A stretch of 64,000 nucleotides of DNA. Origin: Oscillospiraceae bacterium (GTDB taxonomy: Bacteria; Bacillota; Clostridia; Oscillospirales; Ruminococcaceae). Positions 1-62,818 of the stretch are shown one piece after another (the first letter of the stretch is position 1; every line of letters starts with the position of its first letter). Location: contig JAZQBN010000043.1 in the NCBI GenBank assembly GCA_045545795.1, positions 15,001 to 79,000 of the forward strand. Direction: 5' to 3'. The position numbers and the translations under genes are program-made. The notes beneath the pieces are model-generated. The model saw only the letters and a list, made by a program, of their open reading frames with translations. It did not search any database and was not told the DNA's origin.

Positions 1-1
1 G

Positions 2-298
2 GTGTTTTCAGAAAACTTCCGTAGTGTTTCGTATATCGAAACGGAAAACTTCGGCACTTGCTATCAAATTGAAATCGGTGCCTTGCTTGTAGGCAAAATA
101 ATAAATTACTCCGCAGAAAGTTTCTTCAAGGGTGAAGAAAAGGGATACTTTGAAATGGGAGGCTCAACCTGCGTTGTTATGGTAAAAAAAGGCACCGTGA
201 CTATTGATGCCGATATACTTGAAAATTCTGAAAAAGGAATTGAAACCAAAGTCCTTATCGGAGAAAGGATAGGAAAGAAAAATGCTCAGGCGACTTAA
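2..298 (+). CDS. psd: phosphatidylserine decarboxylase, C-terminal fragment (5' end outside window)
   Basis: Translation ends ...GYFEMGGSTCVVMVKKG...VLIGERIG. The G-G-S-T self-cleavage-type motif and tail are typical of Psd proenzymes. The frame is open to the window edge. Confidence 0.65.
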   Translation: MFSENFRSVSYIETENFGTCYQIEIGALLVGKIINYSAESFFKGEEKGYFEMGGSTCVVMVKKGTVTIDADILENSEKGIETKVLIGERIGKKNAQAT

Positions 299-1181
299 TA
301 TTTATTTCAAGGAAATGTATCCGCTTATTCCGAGACTTCTGCTTGGCTTTATAGTCTTTGGCGAGATATATTTTATTTTGCTTCTCAATTATGGTGTTAC
401 GGATTTTTCTTTAGGCATACAGGAAATTGTTGGCGGAATAACGATTTTCGGTTTTCTGATGTTCTTGCGTATTGCTGATGATTTCAAGGATTACGAATCA
501 GATAAACGACTTTTCCCCGACAGAGCATTCCCAAGCGGAAAGGTTTATAAAAAAGACTTGAACACTGTTGTTGCCATAGACCTTGCCGTTATGACAATTC
601 TGAATGTTATTTTTATGAATAACATTTTATTCTATCTGTTTCTTATGACTTATGGAATTCTTATGTCATTGTGGTTTTTCCAGAAGCATAAAATCAGCAA
701 AAGTCTGCCGCTTGCACTGGTTACGCACAACCCTGTGCAGATGGTACTGAATTTGTATATCATTTCATTCTGCTGCATAAAGTACGAGCTTCAGCCATTT
801 ACATTAACATCCTTTCTTGTTCTTATGACGCTTTATTTTCCTGCGCTTATATGGGAGATTGCAAGAAAAATCCGTGCGCCGAAGGATGAAACGGAATACA
901 CAACATATTCAAAGCTTTTTGGACATAAAAAATCTACGCTGTTTATCCTTATCCTTACGCTTGTGGATATAGTTACAAATCTTCTCCTTGTTATAAATCT
1001 TAATATAATCGGTTTCTTTATCCTCATAATCAATGTTACAATAATGACCGCAGAGTTTATTATGTTTATAAAGAATCCCGAAAGATTCAAGCTTGTAACA
1101 AGAGTTGAAATTTACACATACATTACAGAGGCTACAATGCTTCTGATAATTCCCGCCTATATGATATTTGGAAAGATATGA
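282..1181 (+). CDS. UbiA-family prenyltransferase-like polytopic membrane protein
   Basis: 299 aa, very hydrophobic with multiple TM segments. Asp-rich motif DDFKDYESD (DxxDxxxD) followed by R-x-F-P-S-G resembles the first UbiA motif. Overlaps the psd stop by 17 nt. Confidence 0.5.
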   Translation: MLRRLNIYFKEMYPLIPRLLLGFIVFGEIYFILLLNYGVTDFSLGIQEIVGGITIFGFLMFLRIADDFKDYESDKRLFPDRAFPSGKVYKKDLNTVVAIDLAVMTILNVIFMNNILFYLFLMTYGILMSLWFFQKHKISKSLPLALVTHNPVQMVLNLYIISFCCIKYELQPFTLTSFLVLMTLYFPALIWEIARKIRAPKDETEYTTYSKLFGHKKSTLFILILTLVDIVTNLLLVINLNIIGFFILIINVTIMTAEFIMFIKNPERFKLVTRVEIYTYITEATMLLIIPAYMIFGKI

Positions 1182-3565: not shown

Positions 3566-3566
3566 A

Positions 3567-4631
3567 ATGTATCTTGTAAAAAAAGTGACCGAAAATGATT
3601 ATGAAGATTTTTTAGATTTTCCCTCACGCATACATATAAAAAAAGAGCTTATGCAGAAGCGGTCCGATGAAATTGCATTGCTCAAAGGTACACATACGTT
3701 GAGCAATTATTTCACATTTACAGCTTTTCTATGTTACTGTGACAGCATGGTTGTTGCAAGATGTGCTGTAACAATATATACCGATAAAGATGAAGCTTAT
3801 CTCGGCTTTTTTGACAGCGAGGATAATATTGAAGCAGTAAAAACTATTATGGAAGCAGCCGAAAACTTTGCAAGAGAAAACGGAATAAGAAAGCTTACAG
3901 GTCCTGTTGACGCAAGCTTTTGGATTGGATACAGAATGAAATCTAACAAATTTGATGAAAAGCGATTCTTTTCCGAACCCTATGGCAAGGACTATTACCC
4001 GAAGCTATGGAAGGAAAACGGCTATAAAATTTCCCAGGTGTATGTATCAAACATCTATAAAAAGCTTTCAAAGAACGAGGAAGATGACGAAAACTATATA
4101 AAAAGATATAACTTTTTTACCAAAAGAGGTTACAGCATTGTTTCTCCGTCAAGAAAAAACTGGGACAAGGTTATCGGTGAGGTTTACACTCTGCTTGTTA
4201 AGCTATACAGTGATTTCCCTGTTTTCTCGCATATTACCGAAAAAGAGTTTAGAGAGATGTATAAGGACCTCAAAACAGTTCTTGATTTTTCTATGGTCAA
4301 ACTTGGATATAAAAATAATAAGCTGGCAGGATTTTTTATTAGCGTTCCCGATTACGGAAATAGACTTTGCGGAAATATAGGACTTCCTGAGATTTTATTT
4401 ATGCTTAAAAACAGAAGAAGATGTGATAATTACATTCTTCTGTATATTGGCGTTGACGAAAAGCATCTGGGACTTGGATCTGCTTTGTCACAAGCTATGT
4501 TTGAAGAGCTTCGCAGAAAAAGATCTTCATCAATAGGTGCTCTTATTAAAAAGGGCAAGGTGTCCGAAAAATATATTGACAATAAAATCCTTTACCAAAG
4601 GGAATATCTGCTGTTTGAAAAGCATTTATAA
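3567..4631 (+). CDS. hypothetical protein with C-terminal GNAT-like acyltransferase motif
   Basis: 354 aa. YILLYIGVDEKHLGLGSALSQAMFEEL resembles GNAT motif A (R/Q-x-x-G-x-G/A). The start lies 2 nt after the upstream stop. Confidence 0.4.
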   Translation: MYLVKKVTENDYEDFLDFPSRIHIKKELMQKRSDEIALLKGTHTLSNYFTFTAFLCYCDSMVVARCAVTIYTDKDEAYLGFFDSEDNIEAVKTIMEAAENFARENGIRKLTGPVDASFWIGYRMKSNKFDEKRFFSEPYGKDYYPKLWKENGYKISQVYVSNIYKKLSKNEEDDENYIKRYNFFTKRGYSIVSPSRKNWDKVIGEVYTLLVKLYSDFPVFSHITEKEFREMYKDLKTVLDFSMVKLGYKNNKLAGFFISVPDYGNRLCGNIGLPEILFMLKNRRRCDNYILLYIGVDEKHLGLGSALSQAMFEELRRKRSSSIGALIKKGKVSEKYIDNKILYQREYLLFEKHL

Positions 4632-4681
4632 CTTGCTCAATTGAGAAATAGTATTCTTATTTTTTATTATTATTCAATAAA

Positions 4682-4709
4682 CAGGCACACGGTCGATTCC
4701 GTGTGCCTG
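4682..4709. terminator. bidirectional stem-loop between convergent genes
   Basis: CAGGCACACGG-tcgatt-CCGTGTGCCTG, a perfect 11-bp stem flanked by A/T runs. Confidence 0.55.
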
Positions 4710-4809
4710 TCTGCATAACCCGCTGTATTAAGTTTTATACGATATTTGTGAAAACTTCTTTATCGCTGTCCAACTAATGAGCCTCTCTTTAAGCTATTAC
4801 TAATTTAAA

Positions 4810-5469
4810 TTAGTTCTTCTTGGAAGCAACTGCAGCAACACCAGCAAGTGCCATTACAACAGCCATAGCAGCTACAGGAGCGTTGCCTGTGCCAGCGGAT
4901 TCTGTAGTAGCGTCAGCAGCAGGAGCTGTTTCAGCAGCAGGAACACCGTTCTTCATCATTTCGCCGGATTCTTCTTCGGAAACGATCTTGAATGCACCCT
5001 CTGGAGCACCAGCGGAAAGTGTAGCGTTCTTAATGTTAACGTGGCAAACCTGGAAAGCAAGACCAGCCTGTTCGCTGTCGCCGCCCTCGTAGTCAACGAA
5101 AGTGGACCATACAGACTCAGGAACTACGAATTCGATTGTTGTAACATCCTTAGGAACAACGATAAATCCATCGCCCTTAGCGTAAGCTGTGTCGGATGTG
5201 AGGTTAGCTGTGATAGCGTCCCAAGAAACGCAGATGTTCATAGGCTTGAGGAGAGCGTTGATATCGCCAACCAGTGGAGCCTTGTGCTCAACGTCGAGAG
5301 TAACCTTAACGTCGCCGCCGATAGCTGCGAATTCAGCCTTAGGGATTACAGCTGTTGCACCCCAGTCACCAGGATAGTCGCCAACAGAGAGAGCGAATGT
5401 GTTTACAGCTGTCATTGTTACAGCCATTGCTGCTGCTGCGATTGCAGCTACAATCTTCTTAATTTTCAT
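4810..5469 (-). CDS. secreted surface protein, xTGN-anchor family paralog 1
   Basis: Signal peptide MKIKKIVAAIAAAAMAVTMTAVNTFA. C-terminus GTGNAPVAAMAVVMALAGVAAVASKKN has a motif + TM + basic tail. GGAGG RBS upstream of the ATG at 5469. Confidence 0.8.
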   Translation of the reverse strand: MKIKKIVAAIAAAAMAVTMTAVNTFALSVGDYPGDWGATAVIPKAEFAAIGGDVKVTLDVEHKAPLVGDINALLKPMNICVSWDAITANLTSDTAYAKGDGFIVVPKDVTTIEFVVPESVWSTFVDYEGGDSEQAGLAFQVCHVNIKNATLSAGAPEGAFKIVSEEESGEMMKNGVPAAETAPAADATTESAGTGNAPVAAMAVVMALAGVAAVASKKN

Positions 5470-7513: not shown

Positions 7514-8149
7514 TTACTTATTCTTCTTTGCAGCAACAGCAGTTGCAGCAGCAAGTGCCATTACAACAGCCATAGCAGCAACAGGAGCATTGCCTGTTTC
7601 AGGAGCAGTTGTTGTTTCAGCAGCTTCTGTTGTTTCAGCAGCTGCATCACCGAATGATACGGAGAAGTTTACTTCAAATGTATCAACAGGTGCACCGAAG
7701 GAATAGCTGTCGCCTTCCTCAGACATAGGGCAGTCGCCTGCTTCAACAAATGTTTCAGCCCAGCCGTTAATCATACAGATATCAATAACGCCGCTGTCAG
7801 GGTTTACAAGCTCATACTCTGTTTTTGTAGGAGTAAGTGTTTTGCCGTTTGCTGTAATTGAGTTGATTGTTACTGTACCGCCGTTGAATGCTTCGGGAGC
7901 AGCACCGCCTGTAACGTCCTTGATGTAAAGGGTGATATAAAGGTTTTCGCCGCCTGCATTAAGGCTTACACTGTAGTCGCCGCCGTCAGTGCTGATGTCA
8001 AAAGCATCGGACTCATAAAGTGTCCATGACTCTGTATTCTGTGAATAGAGCTTGCAGCTGACTGTTTCAGCAGCAAATGCGTTGACAGCCATTGCGGAAA
8101 CTGCAACAGCCGCAGCTGCTACTGCAGCAATAATCTTTTTAAGCTTCAT
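7514..8149 (-). CDS. secreted surface protein, xTGN-anchor family paralog 4
   Basis: Signal peptide MKLKKIIAAVAAAAVAVSAMAVNAFA. C-terminus PETGNAPVAAMAVVMALAAATAVAAKKNK. Confidence 0.8.
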   Translation of the reverse strand: MKLKKIIAAVAAAAVAVSAMAVNAFAAETVSCKLYSQNTESWTLYESDAFDISTDGGDYSVSLNAGGENLYITLYIKDVTGGAAPEAFNGGTVTINSITANGKTLTPTKTEYELVNPDSGVIDICMINGWAETFVEAGDCPMSEEGDSYSFGAPVDTFEVNFSVSFGDAAAETTEAAETTTAPETGNAPVAAMAVVMALAAATAVAAKKNK

Positions 8150-31559: not shown

Positions 31560-32318
31560 TTATTCTATTATAATAGCCTGCTTGAACATATCATTGTAAC
31601 GCTGTTCAAACAAATCCCTGCTGTAGGTTTTGATTTTTCCTTCACGAGGCTCATATGCTTCTATTGTTTTTTCATCATAACCTGTGATAACATAACAGTG
31701 GGAATAATTTGAATATTCAAATGTTCCGTCAGAAGCATAAGCAGTTTCAAATTTAGGTTCTATCAATTCTGCTGTTGCCCAAACCATAACAGGAACATCA
31801 TTGCTTACATATTCTGTAAGCAAATAGTCAAGACTGTTATCGAGACTTAATGTCACGGTTTTGTCAGGTTTTTTATCAACCCACACACCCTGCAATGCGA
31901 TTTCAATAACAGGTGCATAACAGCTCGCTCCTGTAGTATCCCACGTTTGCCATAAAACATCTTTTGCAGGTGTATTTACGGAAGCAGTCGGAACATACTC
32001 AAAGAATTTTGATGGTGTAATGTCAATTCCGTGATGATTAAGCAAGGCACATATTGAAGGAAGTTCACCACCTTTGATGTTGTATTCATCATAATGAATT
32101 TCCTCAAAATCAATATGTACTCCTGTTTCGGCTTCAGTGGTTGCAGCTACAGTAGTTGTGGTGGTAATTTCCATTTCGGTAACCGAAGAAACAGTGTCCT
32201 CAGATGTAACTGATACTGTCGAAGTTTCAGACGATAATACATCAGATTGCTTTTCTGCACAGCCTGTCAAGCAAAAAGTCGTCAGTAATGTCATTAAAAC
32301 AATTATTTTGCTTTTCAT
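31560..32318 (-). CDS. lipoprotein with papain-fold (peptidase C39-like) domain
   Basis: Lipobox LTGCAEK, then a Thr/Ser-rich linker. Candidate catalytic Cys in PSICALLNHHG and His in YSHCYVITGYDE. Confidence 0.55.
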   Translation of the reverse strand: MKSKIIVLMTLLTTFCLTGCAEKQSDVLSSETSTVSVTSEDTVSSVTEMEITTTTTVAATTEAETGVHIDFEEIHYDEYNIKGGELPSICALLNHHGIDITPSKFFEYVPTASVNTPAKDVLWQTWDTTGASCYAPVIEIALQGVWVDKKPDKTVTLSLDNSLDYLLTEYVSNDVPVMVWATAELIEPKFETAYASDGTFEYSNYSHCYVITGYDEKTIEAYEPREGKIKTYSRDLFEQRYNDMFKQAIIIE

Positions 32319-32449
32319 TTTTCATACCTCTTTTGTTTTAAATACATAATTTGTTGTATTTATCTTTGATTATACAACAAACATATTAATATTTCAATGT
32401 ATCTACTTGATTTGTGGTATAATTTTGTAATAAAATACAACAACCAGAG

Positions 32450-32791
32450 GTGAATTGTGTGCAACATTACAACAGAATTCGTGATTTAAGAGAGGATAAG
32501 GACTTAACTCAGGAACAGCTGATTAAATTGCTTGGTATGCATAAAACAACATACACTAATTACGAACAAGGAAAACACAGTGTTCCATTGGATTTTGCCG
32601 TAGAACTTGCACAATTTTACAAAGTCAGTCTTGATTATATTGCAGGACTTACAAACGAAAAAGACGGATTAACCAAAAGTTCCCTCGACAGCACAGAAAC
32701 AGAGGTTGTGTATAAATTGAGAAAATTAAATGATATTGACAAAGGGCGTATCCTTGGAATGATGGACGCATTGATTGAAAAAGGAAAATAA
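32450..32791 (+). CDS. XRE-family helix-turn-helix transcriptional regulator
   Basis: IRDLREDKDLTQEQLIKLLGMHKTTYTNYEQGKHSVPLDFAVELAQFYKVSLDYIAGL. The true start may be the in-frame GTG at 32459, 9 nt after GAGG. Confidence 0.85.
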   Translation: MNCVQHYNRIRDLREDKDLTQEQLIKLLGMHKTTYTNYEQGKHSVPLDFAVELAQFYKVSLDYIAGLTNEKDGLTKSSLDSTETEVVYKLRKLNDIDKGRILGMMDALIEKGK

Positions 32792-32812
32792 TATAAAGCG
32801 AGGTGAAATTCA

Positions 32813-33004
32813 ATGACTAAAAAAAGATTTGAAAAAGTTTATACACAAGGCTCAATAGATGTTATGGAAATATGGATTGATACCGAAACAGGGGTGAATT
32901 ACCTTTACCGCCAGTCAGGCTATTCGGGAGGGCTTACTCCTCTGCTTGACAAGGACGGCAAGCCTGTTGTAACATTCAAAGACGGATTTGAAACGGAGAA
33001 ATAA
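32813..33004 (+). CDS. small conserved protein (DUF6440-like by recollection)
   Basis: 63 aa. ...ETGVNYLYRQSGYSGGLTPLLDKDGKPV... matches my memory of a family that often follows XRE genes in Clostridia. RBS GAGGTG. Confidence 0.55.
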   Translation: MTKKRFEKVYTQGSIDVMEIWIDTETGVNYLYRQSGYSGGLTPLLDKDGKPVVTFKDGFETEK

Positions 33005-45556: not shown

Positions 45557-46216
45557 TTATTTTACGTTCAGCACGGCTTCCGCAAGCTGCAAAGGCGTGT
45601 CAAAGACGTACTCCGCACCTGCATTTTCAAGCTCATTTTCCTCAGCGTAGCCATATTTCACACCTGCCGAGGCGATGCCGCAAAGCTTTGCACCCTCAAC
45701 ATCGTGCTTTCTGTCACCAATCATCAGCACCGTGCCCTTGTCGGGATTTCCCAGCCTTTTCAGACATTCCGCAATAACCTCAGCCTTTGCATTTCTCTCG
45801 CCGCTCAATTCCGCACCCGTCACAACCTCGAAATACTTGGCAAGGTCAAAATAATCAAGTATACGCAAGGCAAAAACCTCAGGCTTTGAGGTTGCCACAG
45901 CAAGCCGCTTGCCGCCGTTTTTCAGCAGCTCCAGCGCTTCGGGAATTCCCTCATAAACACGGTTTTCGAAAATGCCCTTCACAGGGTAACGCTCACGGTA
46001 AGCCGCAACCGCCTTCATAGCGTCCTCACGGCTTAAACCGTAGAAATCCATAAACGAGTCCACAAGCGGCGGACCGATAAAGCGGAGCAGCTTGTTCCTG
46101 TCGGGCTCAACAATGCCCATCACATTGAGAGCGTGCTCCGCACAGTTCATAATCCCCTCAGCCGAGTCAGTGAGAGTACCGTCAAGGTCAAAAAGGAGAA
46201 TATCGAAATTTTTCAT
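45557..46216 (-). CDS. HAD-superfamily hydrolase (phosphoglycolate phosphatase-like)
   Basis: MKNFDILLFDLDGTLTDS (DxDGT motif) and ...VLMIGDRKHDVEGA. Confidence 0.85.
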   Translation of the reverse strand: MKNFDILLFDLDGTLTDSAEGIMNCAEHALNVMGIVEPDRNKLLRFIGPPLVDSFMDFYGLSREDAMKAVAAYRERYPVKGIFENRVYEGIPEALELLKNGGKRLAVATSKPEVFALRILDYFDLAKYFEVVTGAELSGERNAKAEVIAECLKRLGNPDKGTVLMIGDRKHDVEGAKLCGIASAGVKYGYAEENELENAGAEYVFDTPLQLAEAVLNVK

Positions 46217-46359
46217 AGTAATCTTCCTTAAATAATAATTTACAAACATAGCTGCAACAAAAAATATTGGGTTTCCAAAGGGGAAAAGAGTTCCGCTTCC
46301 CCTTGTATGGTTTACACAAAAGCCTTCATTCAATTATTCTATATACATTTTTGAAGCCA

Positions 46360-46896
46360 TCACTTATTTCGTCTAATGCTTTCGTGAATTTTCGTTAAAG
46401 ATGAAACATCCAATTCACAAATACATTTTGCAATATTTGCTATCCGTGCTTCATATTCTGCACATTCATTTCGTTGCAAGTAAAATTCTGCTGACTCAAA
46501 ACACAATTTAATTATTGCTGTTATATTTCGGTTATCCTTTGTTCCTATGTATGCAAATGTATGCATAATTTCACAAGTAATATTTACACACTCATCAAAG
46601 TAGTCATTATTCTCAAGCTGTAAATTTTCTAAAAAGTCATTACATTCTTGTATATACTTGTCACAATCAAGTTCTGACAAATTAAATCTATTTAATAAAA
46701 TTGCCAAATACGCATTATAACATAATTCAAATTTGTCAGCACTTACATTATTGGCTTTACAATAATTATTAAAATTATAAAATTCAATCATACAAACCGA
46801 AAGTGCGAAATCTATATTTTGTTCATAGCTTTGCAAAGCAACTTTATTTTCAACATTTTTTATAAACTCATTAAAATCAAATTTATCATTTTGCAT
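46360..46896 (-). CDS. hypothetical all-helical protein in an AT-rich single-gene islet
   Basis: 178 aa, no recognisable motif, Asn/Phe/Cys-rich. Composition is clearly AT-richer than the flanking genes. Confidence 0.5.
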   Translation of the reverse strand: MQNDKFDFNEFIKNVENKVALQSYEQNIDFALSVCMIEFYNFNNYCKANNVSADKFELCYNAYLAILLNRFNLSELDCDKYIQECNDFLENLQLENNDYFDECVNITCEIMHTFAYIGTKDNRNITAIIKLCFESAEFYLQRNECAEYEARIANIAKCICELDVSSLTKIHESIRRNK

Positions 46897-47073
46897 TATT
46901 AACAAATCCTTTCATCATTTCGTTGGACGAAACTTTCCCTCTGCCGAGTTTACTGGGTTTCCAAAATAATTGCGAATTACGCATTACGAATTACGCATTT
47001 CGCATTAAACCGCAACAACCCCCAATCCGTGCATTGCGACGGACAAGGGGTTGATTGTTCTTATTATTTCAAA

Positions 47074-52619: not shown

Positions 52620-52925
52620 ATTATTCTTCACGTAAAACAAAGAACAATGTAATTCTGCACAATCCAATAAAAACAGATGATAGAAAAATCATTCTCCTAT
52701 GTTATAATGAAAACTAGCATCATAATCTTCGAATATTCTATAACCATTACTTAGATTCTTTTGATGCACTGTCTCCTTTTCGTTGTAGCATACACAATAT
52801 CCACATAAAGGTACGCAAGCCAAAAAACTTTTCAGCAATGAGCAGCATAATATATTATTTCTCTTGGGAAACAAGTGAAGCCAGTAAAAGTTTATAAAAT
52901 CTACTTATATGATGAGCGAAATCGC

Positions 52926-52954
52926 TTGACATTATTCGCAAAAAAGAATATAAT
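52926..52954 (+). promoter_or_regulatory. perfect-consensus sigma-A promoter of the methyltransferase operon
   Basis: TTGACA (52926-52931)-17 nt-TATAAT (52949-52954), about 20 nt upstream of the GGAGG RBS. Confidence 0.65.
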
Positions 52955-52976
52955 ATATAGGACGGAGGTGATGGCT

Positions 52977-55724
52977 ATGGAATATATATCTGCACAAGAA
53001 GCTGCAGAAAAATGGAGAATCACAAAACGAAGAGTTCAAGTGCTGTGCTCTACCAATAGAATTGAGAATGCAGTACGCATAGGTAATATGTGGGTTATTC
53101 CTAAATCTGCAGAAAAACCATCTGATAGCCGTTTTAAATACAAATCCGAACAAAAAAAGAGCCCTTCCGAAAATCCAATCAGGCTTGCAAGAAATAAAAT
53201 TAAAGCCATTACAACACATGCAATGCACCAATTGCTGGATAAAGGATTTTCAAGTGAAGACGCCAAAAAAGCTCTAATAACAAAGTTTAGCGTGGAACTG
53301 TTAACATATTTTTTCTCGGATGACACCCATCTTGTCAAAGACACTTTTAAAAATAAGGCGCAAGAGGTCATTTCTCAAATAACACATAACGAAGCAAATA
53401 CTTTGGATGTGCTTGCAACAACTGATGAAGATATGCAAGTGTTTATTCGTGAATATCCCTTCTGCTGTGATGATGCATTATCTTGGTGCTACCAGTACGC
53501 CAATAAAATGGTCGATGGATCCATTTATAGTAACACGCAATTTTTCACGGAAAAGTACATGATCACAGCTTTGGTGGATAGTATTGAGATTAAAAGCAAA
53601 TCAAAGATATTGGATCCCGCATGCGGTGGTGCTAATTTTTTAATATACTGCCTTGATGTTCTCACTGAAGATCTTGCATATAAAAATGATGATGCTATCA
53701 CGAAGAAATCAATAGCTGAATCTTTGCATAAATTATACGGATATGAAATAGATTCGACATTGGCCATGGTTGCGTCAATCAATCTGCGCTTGAAGTGTAT
53801 TAGCATATTATCGCTTTTAGGATGCAGTATTGATATTAGTGATTTTTCTTTTTTTGTTCCCAATATTTTTTCTCCTCAGGCCCGTACAATTTCAGGAGCC
53901 TTGGCGATAAACAAGGAGCAGCAAAGTGTATTAAAAATCGGAGAATCTTCAATTGTTGAAATATCCGAGGTTTTTAGCAATGTTGAAATTGTAGTAACAA
54001 ATCCGCCATTTCAAACCATTAAGGGTATGCCTGATAATTTGAAGTCTTTTTTGAAAACCGAATATCCATTATCCAAATGTGATATGTGCAACGCATTTAT
54101 TGAAATGTCAAACGCTATTTTGGTTGATGAAGGAGTCGCAGGTATTGTAACGCAAAACAGCTGGATGTATCTTGACAGTTTTGAAGAGTTGAGACGAAAC
54201 ATGTTGTTGTTCTGCAAAATTCGAAACATTTATGAACTTGGATCGAATGCTTTTTACGATCTTAATGGTGAAAAATCAAATGTTGCACTATTGTTGTTTA
54301 CAAAAAAGACGCCTAACAAAGGTCACACAGTACAACTGACTTCGCTTAAAACTTTGGAATTGGCTCAAAAAGAGACACTATTAACAACGCAAGCTCCATT
54401 GGATCATTATTCGCAGAAAATATTACAAGAAGATATTCTTTCAAATGTGGAATCCAGATTCGATATGATTAGTTCTACTAAATTGAGAGAACTTATTTTT
54501 AAGCATGAACGTTATGAAACATATGCAGTGCCAATGCAAGGCACCTCTACAGGTGCATCAAAAGAGCTCATAGATTATTTTTGGAATCATATCGGAGATA
54601 CTGATTGGATTCCAGTTAGCAAAGGCGGAGGATACTCGCGCTGGCAAGGATTAAACCATTACTGTGTAAAGTGGGGTAAAAACGGAGAGTACATAAGAGC
54701 TCAAAAAGGTTCTGCAATCAGAAATGCCAATTACTTTGAGAAAACACAAATGGTTTTTAGTGATACGGGAACCTCAGGACTGAACGTTCGAGAACTTAGA
54801 GACGGACAAATATTTGTTGCTTCCGGTCCAGGCATCCGAATTAAACAAGGGGGAATTTATGCGCATTTGGCTTTTTTGAATTCTCGCATTTCATCCTATT
54901 ATATCAGGTTGTTATCACCTAAATTAACCATAGCTGCAGGATATATCGCCAAAATACCCGTATGTTCAGAAATTATCGAATCCGCATTGTTAGATGAGTG
55001 TGGCAGGATATGTTTAGAGGCAAAAAAGAGACGCTTGTCCAAACGTCCTTATAATATGGAATTTATGAGCACTACTTTCAGAGAACACATTTCTCTTGAA
55101 GATTTGGCTCATAGATGGTTTATTCAAGACATTGAAGATGAATGGATTCAACTGCAAAATGAATATTTAATTGACGAATATATTTGTTCTATATTTGATT
55201 TAACCCAAAATGATTTATCAATCATCGATGACTATATTGGCACTAAATTGATAAAATCACGTGGAACAGATGAGGCGATTGATGAAGAGCAACTCTGTGC
55301 TGTGCTTATAAATGCTTTGGATTACAATTGCAATGTTTCAAGAACCAAGTCGAGTAAAAAATCATTAGGGTGTGATGGGATTGTCGAATATCTATCACAA
55401 AAAACAGATTGCTCGTGCGAAGTGATTGTTAATTATATTCTTGTTAACAATTTTTATCCAAAAGCTATTAAAGAGCAATATGAAAACCTTTTTCTTCACG
55501 CCATTATAATGTCTGCACTTAGTTATTCGAATAAGAATCGTAGAATCTCCATATCTCGTGTGATAGAAGATTCAAATATTGTGCAACAAATGGATTTATT
55601 GCAGTTCAAAAAATGGGTAAACGATAATTTTAACATAGTACATAAGGAGGCTTTTCTTAAATCTCCCATTTATGTATTTGATCCTATATCGGATGAATTT
55701 ATTTGTGTAAAGGAGAAACAGTAA
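52977..55724 (+). CDS. HTH-fused N6-adenine DNA methyltransferase, PglX/Eco57I-like (gamma class) with large C-terminal target-recognition region
   Basis: N-terminal MerR/excisionase-like HTH ISAQEAAEKWRITKRRVQVLCSTNRIENAVRIGNMWVIPK. SWCYQY...TQFFTEKYM, motif I ILDPACGGANFL, motif IV VVTNPPF. C-terminal WIPVSKGGGYSRWQG...FLNSRISSYYIRLLSPKLTIAAGYIAKIPV. Confidence 0.8.
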   Translation: MEYISAQEAAEKWRITKRRVQVLCSTNRIENAVRIGNMWVIPKSAEKPSDSRFKYKSEQKKSPSENPIRLARNKIKAITTHAMHQLLDKGFSSEDAKKALITKFSVELLTYFFSDDTHLVKDTFKNKAQEVISQITHNEANTLDVLATTDEDMQVFIREYPFCCDDALSWCYQYANKMVDGSIYSNTQFFTEKYMITALVDSIEIKSKSKILDPACGGANFLIYCLDVLTEDLAYKNDDAITKKSIAESLHKLYGYEIDSTLAMVASINLRLKCISILSLLGCSIDISDFSFFVPNIFSPQARTISGALAINKEQQSVLKIGESSIVEISEVFSNVEIVVTNPPFQTIKGMPDNLKSFLKTEYPLSKCDMCNAFIEMSNAILVDEGVAGIVTQNSWMYLDSFEELRRNMLLFCKIRNIYELGSNAFYDLNGEKSNVALLLFTKKTPNKGHTVQLTSLKTLELAQKETLLTTQAPLDHYSQKILQEDILSNVESRFDMISSTKLRELIFKHERYETYAVPMQGTSTGASKELIDYFWNHIGDTDWIPVSKGGGYSRWQGLNHYCVKWGKNGEYIRAQKGSAIRNANYFEKTQMVFSDTGTSGLNVRELRDGQIFVASGPGIRIKQGGIYAHLAFLNSRISSYYIRLLSPKLTIAAGYIAKIPVCSEIIESALLDECGRICLEAKKRRLSKRPYNMEFMSTTFREHISLEDLAHRWFIQDIEDEWIQLQNEYLIDEYICSIFDLTQNDLSIIDDYIGTKLIKSRGTDEAIDEEQLCAVLINALDYNCNVSRTKSSKKSLGCDGIVEYLSQKTDCSCEVIVNYILVNNFYPKAIKEQYENLFLHAIIMSALSYSNKNRRISISRVIEDSNIVQQMDLLQFKKWVNDNFNIVHKEAFLKSPIYVFDPISDEFICVKEKQ

Positions 55725-58019
55725 ATGAACAATATTGCATCAAGTATTTCATCAGCGATATTAGAACTTGTACAAAAAAAATACAATGGGGAATATTCTA
55801 ACATCAAGGAAGTCAAACTTTTTTGGCACAATTATAATTATTTAATGTTTTCTTACGCTAATTTGAAAAAGCTGAACAGGAAAACGAAAGCACTTACATT
55901 GAATGATTTGTGTGCTCTTAACCTAATACCTGCTACTTTACTTCAATTTGAGAAAGAGAATAAATTGCTCATTTCAACTCAACTCGATAGATGCGTAAAC
56001 TTGATTGTATCCAACAATTGTAATCTTTCGTTATTGAGGGAGTTTTTGCTGAACGAAGAGTTGAGAATAACAAAAAGCAGTGTATGTGTAAAGCACGGAA
56101 AAGTGTCTAGAGATGTAACTGGATCATACTACACTCCCCAAGAATTAGCTCAAGCTATTGTTCAAAAAAGTTTTGACAACTCGTTTTCCGAATTGATATC
56201 TCAAAATGCCATTCATGACATTAGAATTGCGGATTTATCATGTGGAAGTGGTGAGTTTTTGTGGGCAACACAGGAATATTTAAAAACTCATTATCAGATA
56301 TCCTATGAAGATTCAGCTGTGTTTCTTTGGGGCTTTGATGTTGATCCTATCGCTCTGCAAATAACATTATGCGAATTGTTGAGCCGTGCCAAGCAATCAA
56401 ACTGGTCCGATATTATTAGTCATTTTTTAGTGGCAAACCCATTGGTGTCCACCCAAGCCGAAGGTTCATTTGACAGAAAAAATGAGTTATTTGCGCTAAA
56501 TAGAATTTATGCAGCAGAGATGGGAATTGATTTTTCTACACACAGTAGTATTAAAGACTTTGATATCATTCTGGGAAACCCTCCTTGGAAAAAAATCAGA
56601 TTTGAAGAGAGAAAATTCTTCTCTTGTTATGAACCTCAAATTTCTGAATTGTCCAAAAAGGATGATAGAGAAAAAGCAATCAATAATCTGAAAATCGAGT
56701 GGAATGAATTATATTCTTGGACAAAAGAAATATCTGCTGATTACTCCATAATGTGTAGTGGTAAATTTGTTCATCCACATATTAAGAAATCGGTTGTGGG
56801 CGAATTAAATACATATTCCCTTTTTACAGAACTGTCTTATTCTTTGTTGAATAATAGTGGATTTACTACACTTATTGTAAAAAGCACGTTGGCCACTACA
56901 CCTGCACACAAGAATCTGTGGAGCAATTTGCTTTTGAACGGAGCGATAAAATCGCTTTTATTCTTTGAAAACAAAAAGAAGATATTCAATATCGATTCCA
57001 GAGAACGTTTTGCTGTCATTTCGCTCACTAAGTCTAATAATGAGAGTTTTGATTTTTCTGCGGGTTTAGAAACTGTGTCTGATCTTCAAAAATGCTCGGT
57101 AATACCAATAACATCATCGATGGTTTTGTCAATCAATCCTTTTACCAATATGCTTCCTAATGTCTCAAGTATAGAAAGTATAAAAGTATTGGTAGATGCG
57201 CATCAAAAAATGCCTTTGTTTGAACACGTGTATCCCGATTGTCATTTTGGCCGCTTGATACATTTAACTGCGCATGCTGATCAAATAACCACAACACTTA
57301 ATGATGACGTTGTTCCTATTTATGAAGGCAAGTTTTTGGAACAGTATGATGCTCGCTATTCTACCTTTGCTGGTTTGGCAAAAGAACGAAAATATGCGCC
57401 AAAAGCTTCTGCTGTAAAAAATGTCGAGAACTGTGGTTATAAACCTTTTCCAGAAAGTCGCTATTTTGTTCGCAAAGAATTGTGGGCTAAATATACAGAT
57501 CAATATAATCAAGACTTTTCTTTGTGCTGGAGAAGCTTAACTTCTCCTACCAATGCAAGGACTATGATTGCTATGATTTTGCCGACTTGTCCTACATGCC
57601 AGTCCATTCAAATGCTTCAAATTGAGAGCGACAAAAATCTACTAATGTTGCTTGGTTTGTTTAATTCTTTGCCTTTTGATTATTTCGTTCGATTAAAAAT
57701 GCCAGGGATTGATCTTACTCAAAGCGTTATTAAACAAATTCCTGTTCCAAATCCTTCTGCATATGAAGAAAAGTGTTTGTATTATGGCAAAAACGAAACA
57801 TTAGAATTTCACATTTTGGCTAGCATTTATCATTTGATAAAGTCCGAAGAAATACTAATGCCATTGGTAGAGAGAACCCGAACATTAACTTATCAAATTG
57901 ATGATAGTTTTTCAAAGGACGAAATAAAAAAGAATTTAGATAATATGTTTGCTCGAGCCTATCAAATTAGTGATTTAGACTTTTCGAAAATAATAACGAC
58001 TTTTTCAAAATATCAATAA
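55725..58019 (+). CDS. second N6-adenine DNA methyltransferase (Eco57I-family, NPPW)
   Basis: GSYYTPQELAQAIV, motif I IRIADLSCGSGEFL, motif IV IILGNPPWKKIRF. C-terminal region PIYEGKFLEQYDARYSTF...FNSLPFDYFVRLKMPG...IKQIPVP. The ATG directly abuts the upstream TAA. AAGGAG RBS. Confidence 0.8.
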   Translation: MNNIASSISSAILELVQKKYNGEYSNIKEVKLFWHNYNYLMFSYANLKKLNRKTKALTLNDLCALNLIPATLLQFEKENKLLISTQLDRCVNLIVSNNCNLSLLREFLLNEELRITKSSVCVKHGKVSRDVTGSYYTPQELAQAIVQKSFDNSFSELISQNAIHDIRIADLSCGSGEFLWATQEYLKTHYQISYEDSAVFLWGFDVDPIALQITLCELLSRAKQSNWSDIISHFLVANPLVSTQAEGSFDRKNELFALNRIYAAEMGIDFSTHSSIKDFDIILGNPPWKKIRFEERKFFSCYEPQISELSKKDDREKAINNLKIEWNELYSWTKEISADYSIMCSGKFVHPHIKKSVVGELNTYSLFTELSYSLLNNSGFTTLIVKSTLATTPAHKNLWSNLLLNGAIKSLLFFENKKKIFNIDSRERFAVISLTKSNNESFDFSAGLETVSDLQKCSVIPITSSMVLSINPFTNMLPNVSSIESIKVLVDAHQKMPLFEHVYPDCHFGRLIHLTAHADQITTTLNDDVVPIYEGKFLEQYDARYSTFAGLAKERKYAPKASAVKNVENCGYKPFPESRYFVRKELWAKYTDQYNQDFSLCWRSLTSPTNARTMIAMILPTCPTCQSIQMLQIESDKNLLMLLGLFNSLPFDYFVRLKMPGIDLTQSVIKQIPVPNPSAYEEKCLYYGKNETLEFHILASIYHLIKSEEILMPLVERTRTLTYQIDDSFSKDEIKKNLDNMFARAYQISDLDFSKIITTFSKYQ

Positions 58020-58053
58020 ATAACGGGGTTACGAATATCGTAACCCCGTTATT
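58020..58053. terminator. bidirectional terminator between the convergent MTase operon and the PLD nuclease gene
   Basis: ATAACGGGGTTACG-aatat-CGTAACCCCGTTAT, a perfect 14-bp stem. Confidence 0.85.
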
Positions 58054-58055
58054 TA

Positions 58056-59297
58056 TTATAGTAAGCCATACATCTTGGAATTTGCAGCAGAGCCGTTTGT
58101 AGCAACGACTTGGCTTTGTTGTTTTAGAGTTTCGAGCTGGTCTACTTCTAACACAGACAAAACATAATAGTCAGTGCGTATTTTTTCCAAAACGATGATT
58201 CTATTGCAGAGCCAAGCTGTTCCCCCTACGCGATGCAATTTTTCGCCAGAAGAAGCTTGCCCCTTAAGTTGAATACGCCATGTTCCGTTTGCCAAATCTC
58301 CGTCAGGGTACTTTATAACGCAATCCATATAGTCAATACCATTATAGTTTACTGTTACTGATTTCTCCACATCTGTATCTTCTGGATTAACATCGAAGAA
58401 AACTAAATCGCCCAAAATATAATCAGCATTATCAGTCTCATAGCGCGTGCCCATTGCATCCCCCATCACTTTTCTGCCCAGTTTGGACAAATCCAAAATG
58501 TTACGTGAGCCTCCCGTCAAAGCACGAGTTTCAAACCACATGCGTTCAGCTGCATTTGTTGCAACAATAGGTTCAATAGCGTGAACTTCTGTTTGTACTC
58601 GGCCTCTACGCTGTCTTACTACTCCGCCGGCAGGCGTTCTGGTCAAGCGTGGCATATGTATTCCTGTTTGATTACCAAATCTACGAGGAGTTCGTTGGCG
58701 TTCACCGGTCAATCTTGTTTGATGTTCTGCACGCGCTTCAAGTTGTATGGTGATCTCTCGTCTCAAATAATCTTCTGCAAGAAGGTTATCCAAATCCTCT
58801 TGTGACTGAATCAACATAGAACATGCATAGTTAGGATCTTGATATTTAGCTATTAATTGTTCAAATGCAATTGGACAATTTTGAAGGGAGACATCAACAT
58901 CGAAACAAGTTGCACTTTCGAAGTTTGTCCAAAGTCCTCCTCCAGTAAGGTTGTTTGAGCCTACAGCCATCCACTTTTCTCCAGAATCATTGGATAACAT
59001 ATAGACCTTTGAATGGAACGTGGTAGCTCCACTTTCAGAATGAACAATATATAACTCATCGCATATCTCAAACAAATTTAGAACTGCTTCGTAAGATGTA
59101 CCATGTGCATCAACTCCGATAAAGGCTGATATATGTCCACCGTTAGCCTTGAATTGTTCCATCGCCGGTTTGAGACGAAGCACACCGCTATTCTTTGCAA
59201 ACGCTGAAAAAACAACAAGTCGGTTATAATCTTGCTGCATTTTATCTATTAACAAATTTCCAAGTTGTCCGTTAAAAGGTTGATTCAACATTAACAT
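58056..59297 (-). CDS. PLD-superfamily (single HKD) nuclease with Arg-rich linker and extra C-terminal domain
   Basis: FHSKVYMLSNDSGEKWMAVGSNNLTGGG (H-x-K...G-S-x-N). Linker is RLTGERQRTPRRFGNQTGIHMPRLTRTPAGGVVRQRRGR. C-terminal domain of ~170 aa. Start at the ATG 8 nt after GGAG; the alternative upstream ATG at 59327 lacks an RBS. Confidence 0.75.
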   Translation of the reverse strand: MLMLNQPFNGQLGNLLIDKMQQDYNRLVVFSAFAKNSGVLRLKPAMEQFKANGGHISAFIGVDAHGTSYEAVLNLFEICDELYIVHSESGATTFHSKVYMLSNDSGEKWMAVGSNNLTGGGLWTNFESATCFDVDVSLQNCPIAFEQLIAKYQDPNYACSMLIQSQEDLDNLLAEDYLRREITIQLEARAEHQTRLTGERQRTPRRFGNQTGIHMPRLTRTPAGGVVRQRRGRVQTEVHAIEPIVATNAAERMWFETRALTGGSRNILDLSKLGRKVMGDAMGTRYETDNADYILGDLVFFDVNPEDTDVEKSVTVNYNGIDYMDCVIKYPDGDLANGTWRIQLKGQASSGEKLHRVGGTAWLCNRIIVLEKIRTDYYVLSVLEVDQLETLKQQSQVVATNGSAANSKMYGLL

Positions 59298-60078
59298 ATT
59301 ATTATCTCCGTTGCTATTTTCAATCATGTTTTTAGTGTTTACGTTTTATCTAATATTAAGGTAAACTTAGGCAAATACAATATATCGGGATATTCAAATT
59401 TCACTTTTCAATAATAGGAAAACCATTTTATCGAAAAAACACAACGACTACTATTAACTACACATCGCGAATTATAGTCATTTACTATATCAAGTCCATT
59501 AATTTCGATTGTACGAAACTTTTTAATATAGCTTCTTGAAGATGTGTTTTTTCAAGCATTTATTAGCATTAAGTCAGGGGATAGTGGAAAGTAAATTTTT
59601 ACATTTTTAAAATAACACCAATCACAGAAGTGTGTATATTATGAATGCGTCCTATGTATAAATTTTATTATATCACGAAATTCGTCAAATAGCAACAGCA
59701 AAAAGGCGGTTATTGGAAATTTATATATGTAGATTCGAACAAAAACAATGCTTATTTCCCAGTGTCAGAGCCTTAGAGCACAATCTCTGTTTGCTGTGCC
59801 TCATAACGCCCAAAATCCCGTTTTCCCACCCGGATTTGTCCCTTTTCTCGAGGCAGCATTGCCTCACCCCCTCGCAGAGCACAAAGACTTATGATAGCCT
59901 CGCTGTCAAAAGTATCTTTGCGTTACTTCTGGAAGAAGTAACAAGACCAGAGCAAGCTCATTCAGAAGGCAGAAATGCTCTAAAAAAGTGATTTACCTCC
60001 ACCCCTATACTGCCGGAAAACCGAATATTTCAGATAGCTGTTTTTGTGTATATTGCACACGAACAGCTATTATCTTTT

Positions 60079-60120
60079 CCCGAAAAGAAGCTTCGATGAG
60101 TTTCTTTTTCGGGATTTTTT
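60079..60120 (+). terminator. orphan plus-strand intrinsic terminator
   Basis: CCCGAAAAGAA-loop-TTCTTTTTCGGG followed by ATTTTTT. No convincing CDS lies upstream. Confidence 0.55.
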
Positions 60121-60413
60121 ATGCAAACTGCAACAAAACACGAACGGGAAACACAGCATATTGCCAGTCGAATAATCCCTATTGCTAACAGCAATATACC
60201 CCCGGAAAATCGGCTTTTTCAGACCCGATATTTCTGGTATTTTGTCAATTGTACCGAACATACATTTCGTAGTATAATGGAAGTGCGAACAAAAAGAGTG
60301 CACTCGTTCGCAGCACCTTGAAAATTTAATATACCTCCCCCCGAATGTCCTTTACATATACGAAAAGTGTATGTCAGCTTTACGCTGTATCACATTTTAA
60401 AAGGAGGAATTCA

Positions 60414-61013
60414 ATGAAGAATTCACATTGGGACATCTTCGGGGAAGTCAAAGAAACCGTCAGCGTTCCCTCTGCCGCAGAATATTACGGTATGAGCGTA
60501 CGGGGCGGTATGACCACTTGCATTTTCCACGAGGACAGAACTCCGTCTATGAAGTTGTACGACGACCATTTTTACTGCTTTGGCTGTACCGAATACGGCG
60601 ATGTTGTAAAGCTTACCGCAAGGCTGTTCGGCTTAACGCAGTATGAAGCGGCGAAAAAGCTCTGCTCTGACTTCGGTATTATCCATTCAAGAGATAAACC
60701 GATTATCAGACAGAAAATATGCGTACAAAGCCAGAGAGAAAAGGAGCAAAGAGTATTTCGCATTCTTTCCGATTACTGCTCATTACTACGCAGATTTCGG
60801 ACTGAATACGCTCCCAAAAGCGACAGCGAAACTCTCCACCCTTTATTCACTGAGAGCCTGACACAGCTTGAAATGTATGAGCATTTCTGTGACGTTTTTA
60901 TCTCAGGCACAACAGACGAAAGAAAAGACTTTATGGAAAACTGCAAGGAGGTAATCGATTATGCAGACAGAAGAAACAATGACTACAACACCAACACCCG
61001 TATCGCCTGCTGA
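60414..61013 (+). CDS. CHC2 zinc-finger (DnaG-type primase zinc-binding domain) protein
   Basis: CIFHEDRTPSMKLYDDHFYCFGCTEYGDVV. AGGAGG RBS before the ATG at 60414. Confidence 0.8.
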   Translation: MKNSHWDIFGEVKETVSVPSAAEYYGMSVRGGMTTCIFHEDRTPSMKLYDDHFYCFGCTEYGDVVKLTARLFGLTQYEAAKKLCSDFGIIHSRDKPIIRQKICVQSQREKEQRVFRILSDYCSLLRRFRTEYAPKSDSETLHPLFTESLTQLEMYEHFCDVFISGTTDERKDFMENCKEVIDYADRRNNDYNTNTRIAC

Positions 61014-62307
61014 TGAAAATATTATCGGTTGGTTTGACGGAAAGAAAATTGACGAGCTTGCTTTCTGCGAGGAATTTGTAAAGCAGTACAACTTCAAATA
61101 TTTTGAAGGCTGTTTCTACAATCTTGACGGAGTGCAGGAGGACGCTTATGTTGAAAGTCTTATCACAACAAAGCTGAAGGACGCAGGCGTTCGCTACGGA
61201 CTTGCAAATAAAATCAAAAATCTGATGAACGCTCTCAGGCATATCTGCTTTACCGAAGATATGGAAACAGATTTAAACGAAATCCATATCCTTAATGGAA
61301 CTTATCACATTGACGGGACATTCTCTCCCGAAAAGAAGCACTGCCGCAACAGAATCAACGTCAGCTATACGGAAGAAACAGTAAAGAAAGCAGTAGTGTG
61401 GGAAAGGTTTGTAAACGAACTTCTTGAGCCTGATGATGTAAAGACGTTGCAGGAATTTATTGGCTACTGCTTACTGAATACCACAAAGGCACAGGCTATG
61501 CTCTTTCTTGTAGGACGAGGCGGCGAAGGTAAAAGCCGTATCGGTGTTATCCTTGAAAAGCTGTTCGGAAAGGCTTGCTACTTTGACAGTATCGTAGCGC
61601 TCTCGAAAAACAAATTTCGTCAGGGCAACCTTGTAGGCAAGTGCGTTCTCGTTGACGATGATATGAGCTTCGAGGGAATTAAGGATACGTCATTCCTGAA
61701 AAGTCTTGTAACAGCAGAAACCTGTATTTCCGTAGAAAAGAAAAACGTTCAGGCTATTCAGGCAAAGCTCTGTGCGAGAGCGGTTGTATTCTCAAACAGC
61801 AATCCGAACTCTCTTTATGACAAAACGGACGGATGGCACAGGCGACTTATTGTTCTTGACACAAAGCCTGTTCCCCCTGACAGAAAGCCTGACCGCTATC
61901 TTTCGGAAAAGCTTATCGCAGAGCTTGACGGAATTTTCTTCTGGGCACTTGAAGGACTAAGGCGACTTATCGAAAATGATTTTATCTTCACAGTCAGCAA
62001 CAAGACCAGAGAGATAATGGAGAACTTAAAGCAAGAAAACTGCAACGTCGCAGAATTTATGAACGACGCTCAGGCAGTTCAGCTTTCTCCCGAAAGTACA
62101 ACTTGCTCCGTTGATATTTACAACGCTTATGTAAACTGGTGTCAGAGCAACGGCTTGCAGGAACTGAAACAGAAAAGCTTTTACGACTGGCTGTATCACA
62201 ACTGTGAAAGCTATAATCTCTCACCTACGAACAAAGCTCACAACGGAAGAAATTACGTCAGAGGTTATGTTGGTATCAGCGTTTCTTACAGAAGTAAGGC
62301 AGCATAA
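60961..62307 (+). CDS. P4/D5-family primase-helicase-like NTPase
   Basis: 448 aa. Walker A GRGGEGKS, Walker B CVLVDDDM, FSNSNP. AGGAGG RBS. Overlaps the upstream gene by 53 nt. Confidence 0.75.
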   Translation: MQTEETMTTTPTPVSPADENIIGWFDGKKIDELAFCEEFVKQYNFKYFEGCFYNLDGVQEDAYVESLITTKLKDAGVRYGLANKIKNLMNALRHICFTEDMETDLNEIHILNGTYHIDGTFSPEKKHCRNRINVSYTEETVKKAVVWERFVNELLEPDDVKTLQEFIGYCLLNTTKAQAMLFLVGRGGEGKSRIGVILEKLFGKACYFDSIVALSKNKFRQGNLVGKCVLVDDDMSFEGIKDTSFLKSLVTAETCISVEKKNVQAIQAKLCARAVVFSNSNPNSLYDKTDGWHRRLIVLDTKPVPPDRKPDRYLSEKLIAELDGIFFWALEGLRRLIENDFIFTVSNKTREIMENLKQENCNVAEFMNDAQAVQLSPESTTCSVDIYNAYVNWCQSNGLQELKQKSFYDWLYHNCESYNLSPTNKAHNGRNYVRGYVGISVSYRSKAA

Positions 62308-62335
62308 TTTTTTTCATTCCAAGTGAAAAGTGTAT

Positions 62336-62387
62336 GTACGTACGTACCAAGTCAAGAGAAATCCGAAGCCTTATGGTACGTACGTAC
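62336..62387 (+). repeat. perfect 13-bp (GTAC)n inverted repeat, possible terminator
   Basis: GTACGTACGTACC (62336-62348), a 26-nt loop, then GGTACGTACGTAC (62375-62387), followed by GCAGGGTTTT. Confidence 0.7.
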
Positions 62388-62456
62388 GCAGGGTTTTAAA
62401 CTGAAATGAAAATTTTTTCTTTCGGAAAAACTATCAAGGCTGAATTTATTTTTACG

Positions 62457-62705
62457 TTGACAGCAAGCATAGCCTGTGTAAAGACACAGACACGTTTTTG
62501 CAAAAACTGTATGCCTGCTCTCTGATATTATCATTGAGAGCAAGCATATGATTTGTCTATACACTTCATCAATTTTGCGACCTGCTCTTTTTCAATTTCA
62601 GATGAGAGCAAGCATCGCCTGTGTATAGACACAATCAGTTTTTTGTAAACTATGCTTTCTGCAACTTCGTTGACAGCAAGCATAGCATTTGTGGCCACAC
62701 TCCCT
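62457..62705. repeat. four degenerate ~68-77-bp direct repeats (iteron-like / repeated promoter-like boxes)
   Basis: Cores are TTGACAGCAAGCATAGCCTGTGTAAAGACAC (62457), TTGAGAGCAAGCATATGATTTGTCTATACAC (62534), ATGAGAGCAAGCATCGCCTGTGTATAGACAC (62602) and TTGACAGCAAGCATAGCATTTGTGGCCACAC (62670). Confidence 0.7.
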
Positions 62706-62818
62706 CTTTTTCAGAGAAAATCCGTGTGTCGACAAATACAAAAAACACTTGGGAGAACCCAAACCCCTTGATTGATTTTCTGAAAAAATTAATAAATCCG
62801 TGTCAGTCCATAAGGGAC

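Follow-up and report, generated by a model that had tools for sequence, protein, structure and literature searches.

Two large adenine methyltransferase genes that converge on a nuclease gene of the phospholipase D (PLD) family raise the question of whether such a locus forms a restriction-modification (R-M) system in its own right, or whether one of the methyltransferases guides an otherwise unspecific nuclease. We analysed this arrangement in a 64,000-nucleotide stretch of an Oscillospiraceae genome (GenBank assembly GCA_045545795.1, contig JAZQBN010000043.1, positions 15,001 to 79,000 of the forward strand), here called the window, in which the two methyltransferase genes are designated M1 and M2 and the nuclease gene R. 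An earlier note on this DNA had proposed a BfiI-like R-M system, and this proposal is supported: R matches BfiI by family profile and, in both of its domains, by fold, while the trio is strictly co-inherited. We conclude that the three genes very probably constitute a self-contained type II R-M cassette, most likely of type IIS, that resides on mobile elements of gut Clostridia. The gene content described in that note was recovered in full, with three intact genes at 52977-59297, methyltransferases of 915 and 764 residues abutting at TAA-ATG and a convergent PLD nuclease, and every motif string that it quoted is present in the translations of M1, M2 and R.

The nuclease comprises two domains. 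An N-terminal single-HKD PLD domain (residues 1-195, nt 58713-59297), with H95, K97, N115, E127 and the motif FHSK, is followed by a basic linker of some 50 residues (196-245) that is modelled with low confidence, and by a predicted C-terminal B3-like DNA-binding pseudobarrel (residues 246-413, nt 58059-58562). Searches of the PDB with single sequences gave no match for R or M2, and a family profile was needed for R. Indeed, a profile built from 21 R homologues retrieved BfiI (2c1l, E 6e-7) as its sole PDB match, covering the PLD domain only. In this alignment FHSK corresponds to LHAK of BfiI (ILHAKLY), GSNNLTGGG to SGNFTGPG and NFESA to NIEAS, and H95, K97, N115 and E127 fall on H105, K107, N125 and E136, which are given as the catalytic residues of BfiI (PMC4081073). 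All four positions are invariant among the 21 homologues of R. Congruent with the profile, BfiI is the top Foldseek match (E 8e-13) of an AlphaFold model of full-length R, which has a predicted local distance difference test (pLDDT) score of 67; the modelled N-terminal fold also matches SauUSI, as the second fold match, as well as Zucchini and NucT. Modelled separately from 83 sequences, the C-domain reached a pLDDT of 94, and here the best Foldseek match is BfiI-C with DNA (3zi5, E 2e-4, probability 1.0), followed by BfiI 2c1l, with LlaJI.R1-N and plant B3/ARF domains among the further matches. Family profile and predicted fold together confirm the PLD assignment of R. Of the PADLOC models, R matches REase_II (3e-7) and, marginally, DrmC (E 0.005), while its public annotation reaches at most 'phospholipase D family protein'.

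The layout of the cassette is equally well defined (Table 1). The open reading frame of M1 spans 52875-55724 (+), and we assigned its start to the ATG at 52977 (MEYIS...), the sole ATG common to its homologues; close homologues carry ATA at the position of 52971, and 52977 is preceded, at a distance of 9-13 nt, by a GGAGG ribosome-binding site. The ATG of M2 begins at the base right after the TAA stop codon of M1. The open reading frame of R covers 58056-59327 (-), and its start was placed at 59297, preceded by GGAG, because full-length homologues, nearly all of ~405-425 residues, almost without exception begin at the equivalent methionine (MLMLNQ/MxLINQ). Between the convergent genes the earlier note had described a perfect 14-bp bidirectional terminator. 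The hairpin is indeed perfect, with 100% complementary arms, however its size was underestimated: the arms measure 20 nt around a 3-nt loop, and the structure takes in the stop codons of both M2 and R.

The R family comprises 1331 database proteins at E<=1e-3, all of full length. For comparison we used 48 genome loci with R homologues, supplemented by metagenome contigs and by look-ups seeded with M1. Among the 48 loci, all those with an R identity of at least 43% and enough flanking sequence have M2 and M1 as well, arranged convergently as in the window, and the identities of R, M1 and M2 fall in parallel (71/56/57, 53/45/43 and 45/38/36%). The same trio occurs in metagenome contigs whose R is 89%, 71% and 53% identical, on a plasmid of Enterococcus gallinarum at 33% R identity, and in look-ups seeded with three M1 homologues, thus ranging from Clostridia to Enterococcus. 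The gene neighbourhood, whose conservation the earlier note had proposed to examine, is thus kept in every locus of sufficient length between 33% and 90% R identity. The flanking genes vary by locus, including a serine recombinase with ParB, or relaxase, MobA or TraG genes, and other copies sit in a prophage (S24 repressor and phage genes), in a defence island, or on conjugative or mobilisable elements. Since the surrounding genes change each time while the trio stays, the trio is the unit of inheritance. With more than 1300 homologues of R and hundreds of M1, chance is excluded as the source of the cassette.

Certain loci of the comparative set deserve separate mention. In L055-L059, where the cassette is 89% identical, it lies on a mobilisable element with a relaxase, a MobC-like gene and an integrase, next to genes for a HipA toxin and a type IV nuclease similar to GmrSD and to Pycsar-like genes (one with a Guanylate_cyc domain, adjacent to PycTM); the window has no such defence island. 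L036, L041, L042 and L046 hold decayed cassettes, in which the matches to M1, M2 and R are fragmented or carry internal deletions. All that is left in L042 is residues 1-270 of R and residues 1-70 of M1, plus the putative operator described below. This pattern suggests that nuclease and methylases are lost together in decayed copies. In L002-L005, and probably in L008, a 74-residue HTH_3/HTH_31 gene (7780-8004) overlaps the start of the R gene by 4 bp and appears similar to a C-protein, a classical R-M control element. No C-protein-like gene was found upstream of R in the window, where 59298-60344 holds no credible open reading frame.

More distant relatives of R are informative in a different manner. 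Full-length homologues at 37-40% identity, from Sulfuricurvum, Puniceicoccaceae, Spirochaetaceae, Brevundimonas and a Psychrobacter plasmid, pair with two other methylase genes instead of M1-M2. In L035, L038, L039, L045 and L060 the partners are a Dam-like D12-class enzyme and an enzyme of the EcoRI-methylase family, the latter fused to a RelB-type domain in L039 according to Pfam; in L060, the Psychrobacter plasmid pA3H10, the second partner is annotated as RelB/DinJ antitoxin, by annotation only and not by Pfam scan. A homologue in a Coriobacteriaceae locus (L037) is instead accompanied by an M2-like and a Dam-like methylase. All six alternative loci thus hold two adenine methylase genes each (the second Psychrobacter gene by annotation only), and the R gene is linked to two methyltransferase genes throughout the trio and alternative-pair loci. 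By sequence, the R family keeps its own recognition domain while exchanging three different methylase pairs. M1 is therefore to be seen as an exchangeable protective methylase rather than as a PglX-like partner that defines the system. The pairing of distant R homologues with other adenine-methylase pairs likewise suggests that R targets DNA by itself and needs two methylases, and with R and two adenine methylases as the constants, an asymmetric type IIS site is expected. Three methylase pairs around one nuclease family also offer an illustration of modular R-M evolution.

Both methyltransferases carry the expected signatures, with motif I DPACGGANF and motif IV NPPF in M1, and DLSCGSGEF and NPPW in M2. 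In Pfam, M1 scores 65 bits against N6_Mtase and 58 bits against Eco57I, and M2 51 bits against Eco57I and 32 bits against N6_Mtase, all above threshold. Further motifs of M1 are WIPVSKGGGYSRWQG, FLNSRISSYYIRLL and GYIAKIPV. The C-terminal half of the protein had been likened to PglX in the earlier note, a resemblance that is real, yet partial, as it extends only from motif IV to the target-recognition domain region. Over residues ~330-750 M1 matches the PADLOC models of PglX (1.5e-57) and of type IIG enzymes (1.4e-52), and it matches PglX/BrxX chains of the PDB at 1e-27. Against the NCBIfam model of BREX-1 PglX (BREX_1_MTaseX), however, it reaches 216 bits where the cut-off is 500, and the match covers no more than positions 502-946 of the 1210 in the model. 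On account of this low score and partial coverage, M1 is judged from its sequence to be not a PglX but a relative with the catalytic and recognition module in common, and its PglX/type IIG-like C-terminal half is presumed to be the target-recognition region. The N-terminus bears a helix-turn-helix (HTH) of the HTH_17 type (encoded at ~52983-53111), whose score of 22-27 bits for the window copy falls narrowly short of the 27-bit cut-off, but which is matched in 17 of 20 M1-family N-termini and is their best conserved part.

M2 is only remotely related to M1. It has a type IIG-like C-terminal region of its own, with residues 275-761 matching the C-terminal part of the PADLOC type IIG model at 2.5e-31, and it scores 85 bits, below the 353-bit cut-off, against the NCBIfam N6-methyladenine methylase family of Alw26I/Eco31I/Esp3I. 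M2 is thus a distant relative of that group, whose nucleases are not of the PLD type. A bifunctional type IIG enzyme was considered for either protein and rejected. The Pfam scan found no nuclease domain in M1 or M2, and none is fused to the methylase and target-recognition parts; the PADLOC type IIG alignments begin at the methylase core (M1 336-747 on model 495-925, M2 275-761 on model 745-1234), and the N-terminus of M1 is the HTH.

Taken as an R-M cassette, the locus would work as follows. M1 and M2 would act as independent monomeric gamma-class N6-adenine methyltransferases with a recognition region each, and each would modify one of the two strands of the same asymmetric target. The B3-like pseudobarrel of R would read the unmethylated form of this target, two PLD domains would dimerise into one HxK active site, and R would cut both strands beside the target without a metal ion, via a covalent phospho-histidine intermediate. 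M1 and M2 would be co-transcribed from a consensus promoter and R, convergently, from its own, while the HTH of M1 could bind a conserved element overlapping the methylase promoter and thereby autoregulate methylase synthesis. Strand-specific methylation, metal independence, the asymmetric site, the position of cleavage and autoregulation by the HTH are all inferred.

The closest known systems help to place these features. BfiI/BmrI (ACTGGG 5/4; 2C1L, 3ZI5) has the same order of N-terminal single-HKD PLD domain, linker and C-terminal B3-like pseudobarrel as R and, like the cassette, two separate methyltransferase genes and no ATPase partner, whereas R is longer (413 versus 358 residues) and has a longer basic linker. 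The methylases of BfiI modify cytosine; unlike these, those of the cassette are two large (915 and 764 residues) Eco57I/type IIG-like N6-adenine enzymes. The gamma-class core and the helical/target-recognition region of M1, and more remotely of M2, recur in BREX PglX (BrxX) and in enzymes of type IIG/IIL (MmeI and Eco57I families), and the motif 'LNS...Y..RL......I..IPV' is common to PglX/type IIG proteins and M1. In contrast, M1 is devoid of the ~470-residue N-terminal part of PglX and of a nuclease domain, and has the HTH instead.

Several observations weigh against the type II interpretation. In Pfam, R reaches only 18 bits with each of RE_NgoFVII and PLDc_2, below cut-off, and its identity to BfiI is 12-16% (12% in the C-domain). 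The agreement of the C-domain with BfiI-C is also modest, with a template-modelling score (TM-score) of 0.45-0.48. Because of this score and the 12% identity, the domain is best viewed as a divergent B3-like member, by its model, with a specificity that presumably, almost certainly, differs from that of BfiI. Furthermore, comparison of observed and expected k-mer counts in the window and in ~0.6 Mb of pooled host loci revealed no depleted candidate site: neither GATGAG nor (T)ATTCGC shows depletion (z from -0.3 to +1.1), and none of the asymmetric 5-7-mers was conspicuous, so restriction pressure has no independent confirmation. The invariant GATGAG half of the promoter element has no explanation in the operator model presented below.

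Among the competing explanations, one retains a type IIS system and modifies it, in that the large methylases also take part in restriction, by licensing or positioning R, or that the GATGAG...TATTCGC element is the recognition site of the system itself. We consider this distinctly improbable. For the promoter motif as an R-M site there is no support, since neither GATGAG nor ATTCGC is depleted, but the recent mobility of these systems leaves it a small probability. If correct, such a modification would make this a type IIS system of a new regulatory or mechanistic kind, and its own-site version would imply methylation-sensing control of expression. Further removed is a methyltransferase-guided system, BREX-like, MANTIS-like or a 'split type IIG', in which M1, with or without M2, finds the target and recruits or activates an unspecific R. 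The homology of the C-terminal half of M1 to PglX and type IIG enzymes speaks for it, as do the PLD nucleases that serve as effectors in MANTIS and DISARM, together with the weak DrmC match of R. We regard it as very unlikely nonetheless. R has its own highly conserved B3-like DNA-binding domain, with BfiI-C as best match, and the exchange of methylase pairs argues against dependence on a PglX-like M1, considering that the R homologues combine with three unrelated pairs, small Dam-like and EcoRI-like enzymes included. Moreover, none of the contexts has a conserved BrxA/B/C, PglZ, BrxL, MtsA/B or helicase gene next to the trio, and M1 lies far below the PglX family cut-off. BREX was consequently rejected, with M1 at less than half of the required bits and the partner genes absent from the window and the homologous loci. 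The absence of BREX and DISARM partners in the window, reported in the earlier note, hence holds also for the homologous loci. The MANTIS (Gao_RL) set consists of the AAA+ protein MtsA, the DUF3870 protein MtsB and MtsD, a helicase-fused PLD protein (bioRxiv 10.64898/2026.09.23.753747), and DISARM was judged by DrmA/DrmB helicase genes together with DrmC. Both were rejected: R, with 413 residues in two domains, has no helicase domain, and no ATPase genes are conserved nearby.

An ATP-dependent enzyme of the NgoAVII/CglI type, where R would need a separate helicase-like ATPase subunit, shares with the cassette a PLD and B3-like nuclease layout (PMC4267654, PMC5737866) and, presumably, recognition of an asymmetric site, and the weak RE_NgoFVII match of R points the same way. 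Those systems, however, have a separate DEAD-family ATPase gene and one methylase, as opposed to two methylases and no conserved ATPase here. Since neither the window nor the homologous contexts show a conserved ATPase or helicase gene next to the trio, the type was rejected and we rate it as extremely unlikely; BfiI is moreover the best PDB match of R, and NgoAVII is not among the matches listed. Finally, R could be no restriction partner at all, but a type IV or non-specific PLD nuclease beside orphan or phase-variable methyltransferases. Type IV enzymes with PLD domains do exist, SauUSI among them, and the public annotation of R goes no further than its PLD family. On the other hand, the convergent linkage of the trio is strict over 33-90% identity and many contexts, R, M1 and M2 diverge in parallel, and decayed loci lose R and methylases together, while a type IV enzyme linked to the methylases that make its substrate would be self-toxic. 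This explanation is, in our view, hardly credible either. A type II, most likely type IIS, R-M cassette thus remains the preferred interpretation.

The region upstream of M1 adds a regulatory aspect. A sigma-70 promoter with 12 of 12 consensus positions (TTGACA-17-TATAAT, 52926-52954, with 52926 as the first base of the -35 hexamer) is embedded in a conserved element that consists of GATGAG (52911-52916), the -35 TTGACA (52926-52931), TATTCGC (52933-52939), GAATA (52946-52950) and the -10 TATAAT (52949-52954), where TATTC-N8-GAATA forms an inverted repeat that extends over the spacer of the promoter and its -10 hexamer. In the family it takes the form GATGAG - ~9-12 nt - TTGAYA - N - TATTCGC - N5-6 - GA(A/T)TA(T)AAT. 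The element precedes M1 in 31 of 32 distinct loci, with proteins down to ~35% M1 identity, and as GATGAG...TTGAYA.TATTCGC...GAATATAAT it recurs in L002-L009, L014-L034, L040, L044, L055-L059, L061 and L065-L067. The pattern GATGAG-N13-19-DTTCGY was found directly upstream of M1 in 35 of the loci fetched, as compared to 7 matches elsewhere. In four Ruminococcus-type loci the element lies behind a separate promoter-like sequence and directly before the ribosome-binding site, a position which indicates that it is more than a promoter. It was not found upstream of R or of the alternative methylase pairs, where L037 and L039 show no more than isolated TATTCGC strings, and hence tracks M1 and its HTH. 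Thus, the fused HTH of M1 probably uses this element as its operator.

Known examples of methyltransferases that carry an HTH regulator at the N-terminus are M.SsoII, M.EcoRII and M.MspI, and for such methylases, M.SsoII included, autoregulation is established. The M.SsoII type, a promoter-proximal methylase with a DNA-binding domain and an operator in its own promoter, resembles the arrangement of M1. It differs in that the regulator is fused to a C5-cytosine methylase, whereas M1 combines an HTH_17-type domain, of predicted binding, with an adenine methylase. Conserved element and fused HTH together provide a testable regulatory model. Inside the coding region of M1, at 54405-54428, there is an 83% identical second copy of the promoter segment CATTATTCGCAAAAAAGAATATAA, possibly by chance.

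With respect to novelty, which the earlier note had implied, our data lead to a different assessment: the architecture of R is constant with three methylase pairs, and putative PLD-type restriction enzymes of other specificities are already noted in REBASE as 'far from rare' (PMC4081073). The cassette represents an uncharacterised family within an established class, in which the two large type IIG-like methylases form an unusual pair and the candidate operator is well defined. It is no defence system of a new kind and leaves the current understanding of such systems unchanged. Our literature searches found no description of the R family. LlaKI is reported to be a metal-independent enzyme of ~50 kDa that cuts like FokI (PMC4392985); no link to R is made. 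Few metal-independent PLD-type restriction enzymes have been characterised, namely BfiI/BmrI and the NgoAVII/CglI group. The analysis defines a large, coherent BfiI-like family of more than 1300 database proteins with cognate methylases, widespread on conjugative, mobilisable and prophage elements of gut Clostridia, where it is probably a barrier to gene flow and phage. The specificity is likely a new one of type IIS, and the enzyme could serve as a restriction enzyme, or cleavage module, resistant to ethylenediaminetetraacetic acid.

Table 1. Features of the cassette, with positions as numbered in the window.
Feature	Position	Strand	Basis
M1-M2 promoter and conserved cis element	52911..52954	+	12/12 consensus match; conserved upstream of M1
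M1, 915-residue N6-adenine DNA methyltransferase	52977..55724	+	Pfam, PADLOC, NCBIfam and PDB matches
M2, 764-residue second N6-adenine DNA methyltransferase	55725..58019	+	Pfam, PADLOC and NCBIfam matches
Bidirectional intrinsic-terminator hairpin, common to convergent M2 and R	58015..58057	unstranded	
R, 413-residue BfiI-type restriction endonuclease candidate	58056..59297	-	Family profile, Foldseek and PADLOC

The cassette had also been described as lying in AT-richer DNA next to a mobile element, with which the surroundings agree. The GC content is 0.32-0.37 across 53-58 kb, versus 0.45-0.50 in prs, glmU and ppdK, core genes on the upstream side, and downstream follow a primase-like gene with a CHC2 zinc finger and a DUF5906/VapE-like gene (together at 60345-62307), typical of an integrative element. 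Around the island no convincing att-like direct repeats were detected, and the window contains no tRNA genes. A 39-nt imperfect inverted repeat is found at 62311-62412. Just downstream of the primase-like and VapE-like genes, at 62455-62711, there are four copies of a 44-nt direct repeat, 68-77 nt apart, which resemble replication-origin iterons and would belong to the adjacent mobile element. Elsewhere in the window, where the GC content is ~0.45, further low-GC stretches (0.34-0.37) at 1-5000, 32001-33000 and 46001-47000 may be other acquired segments.

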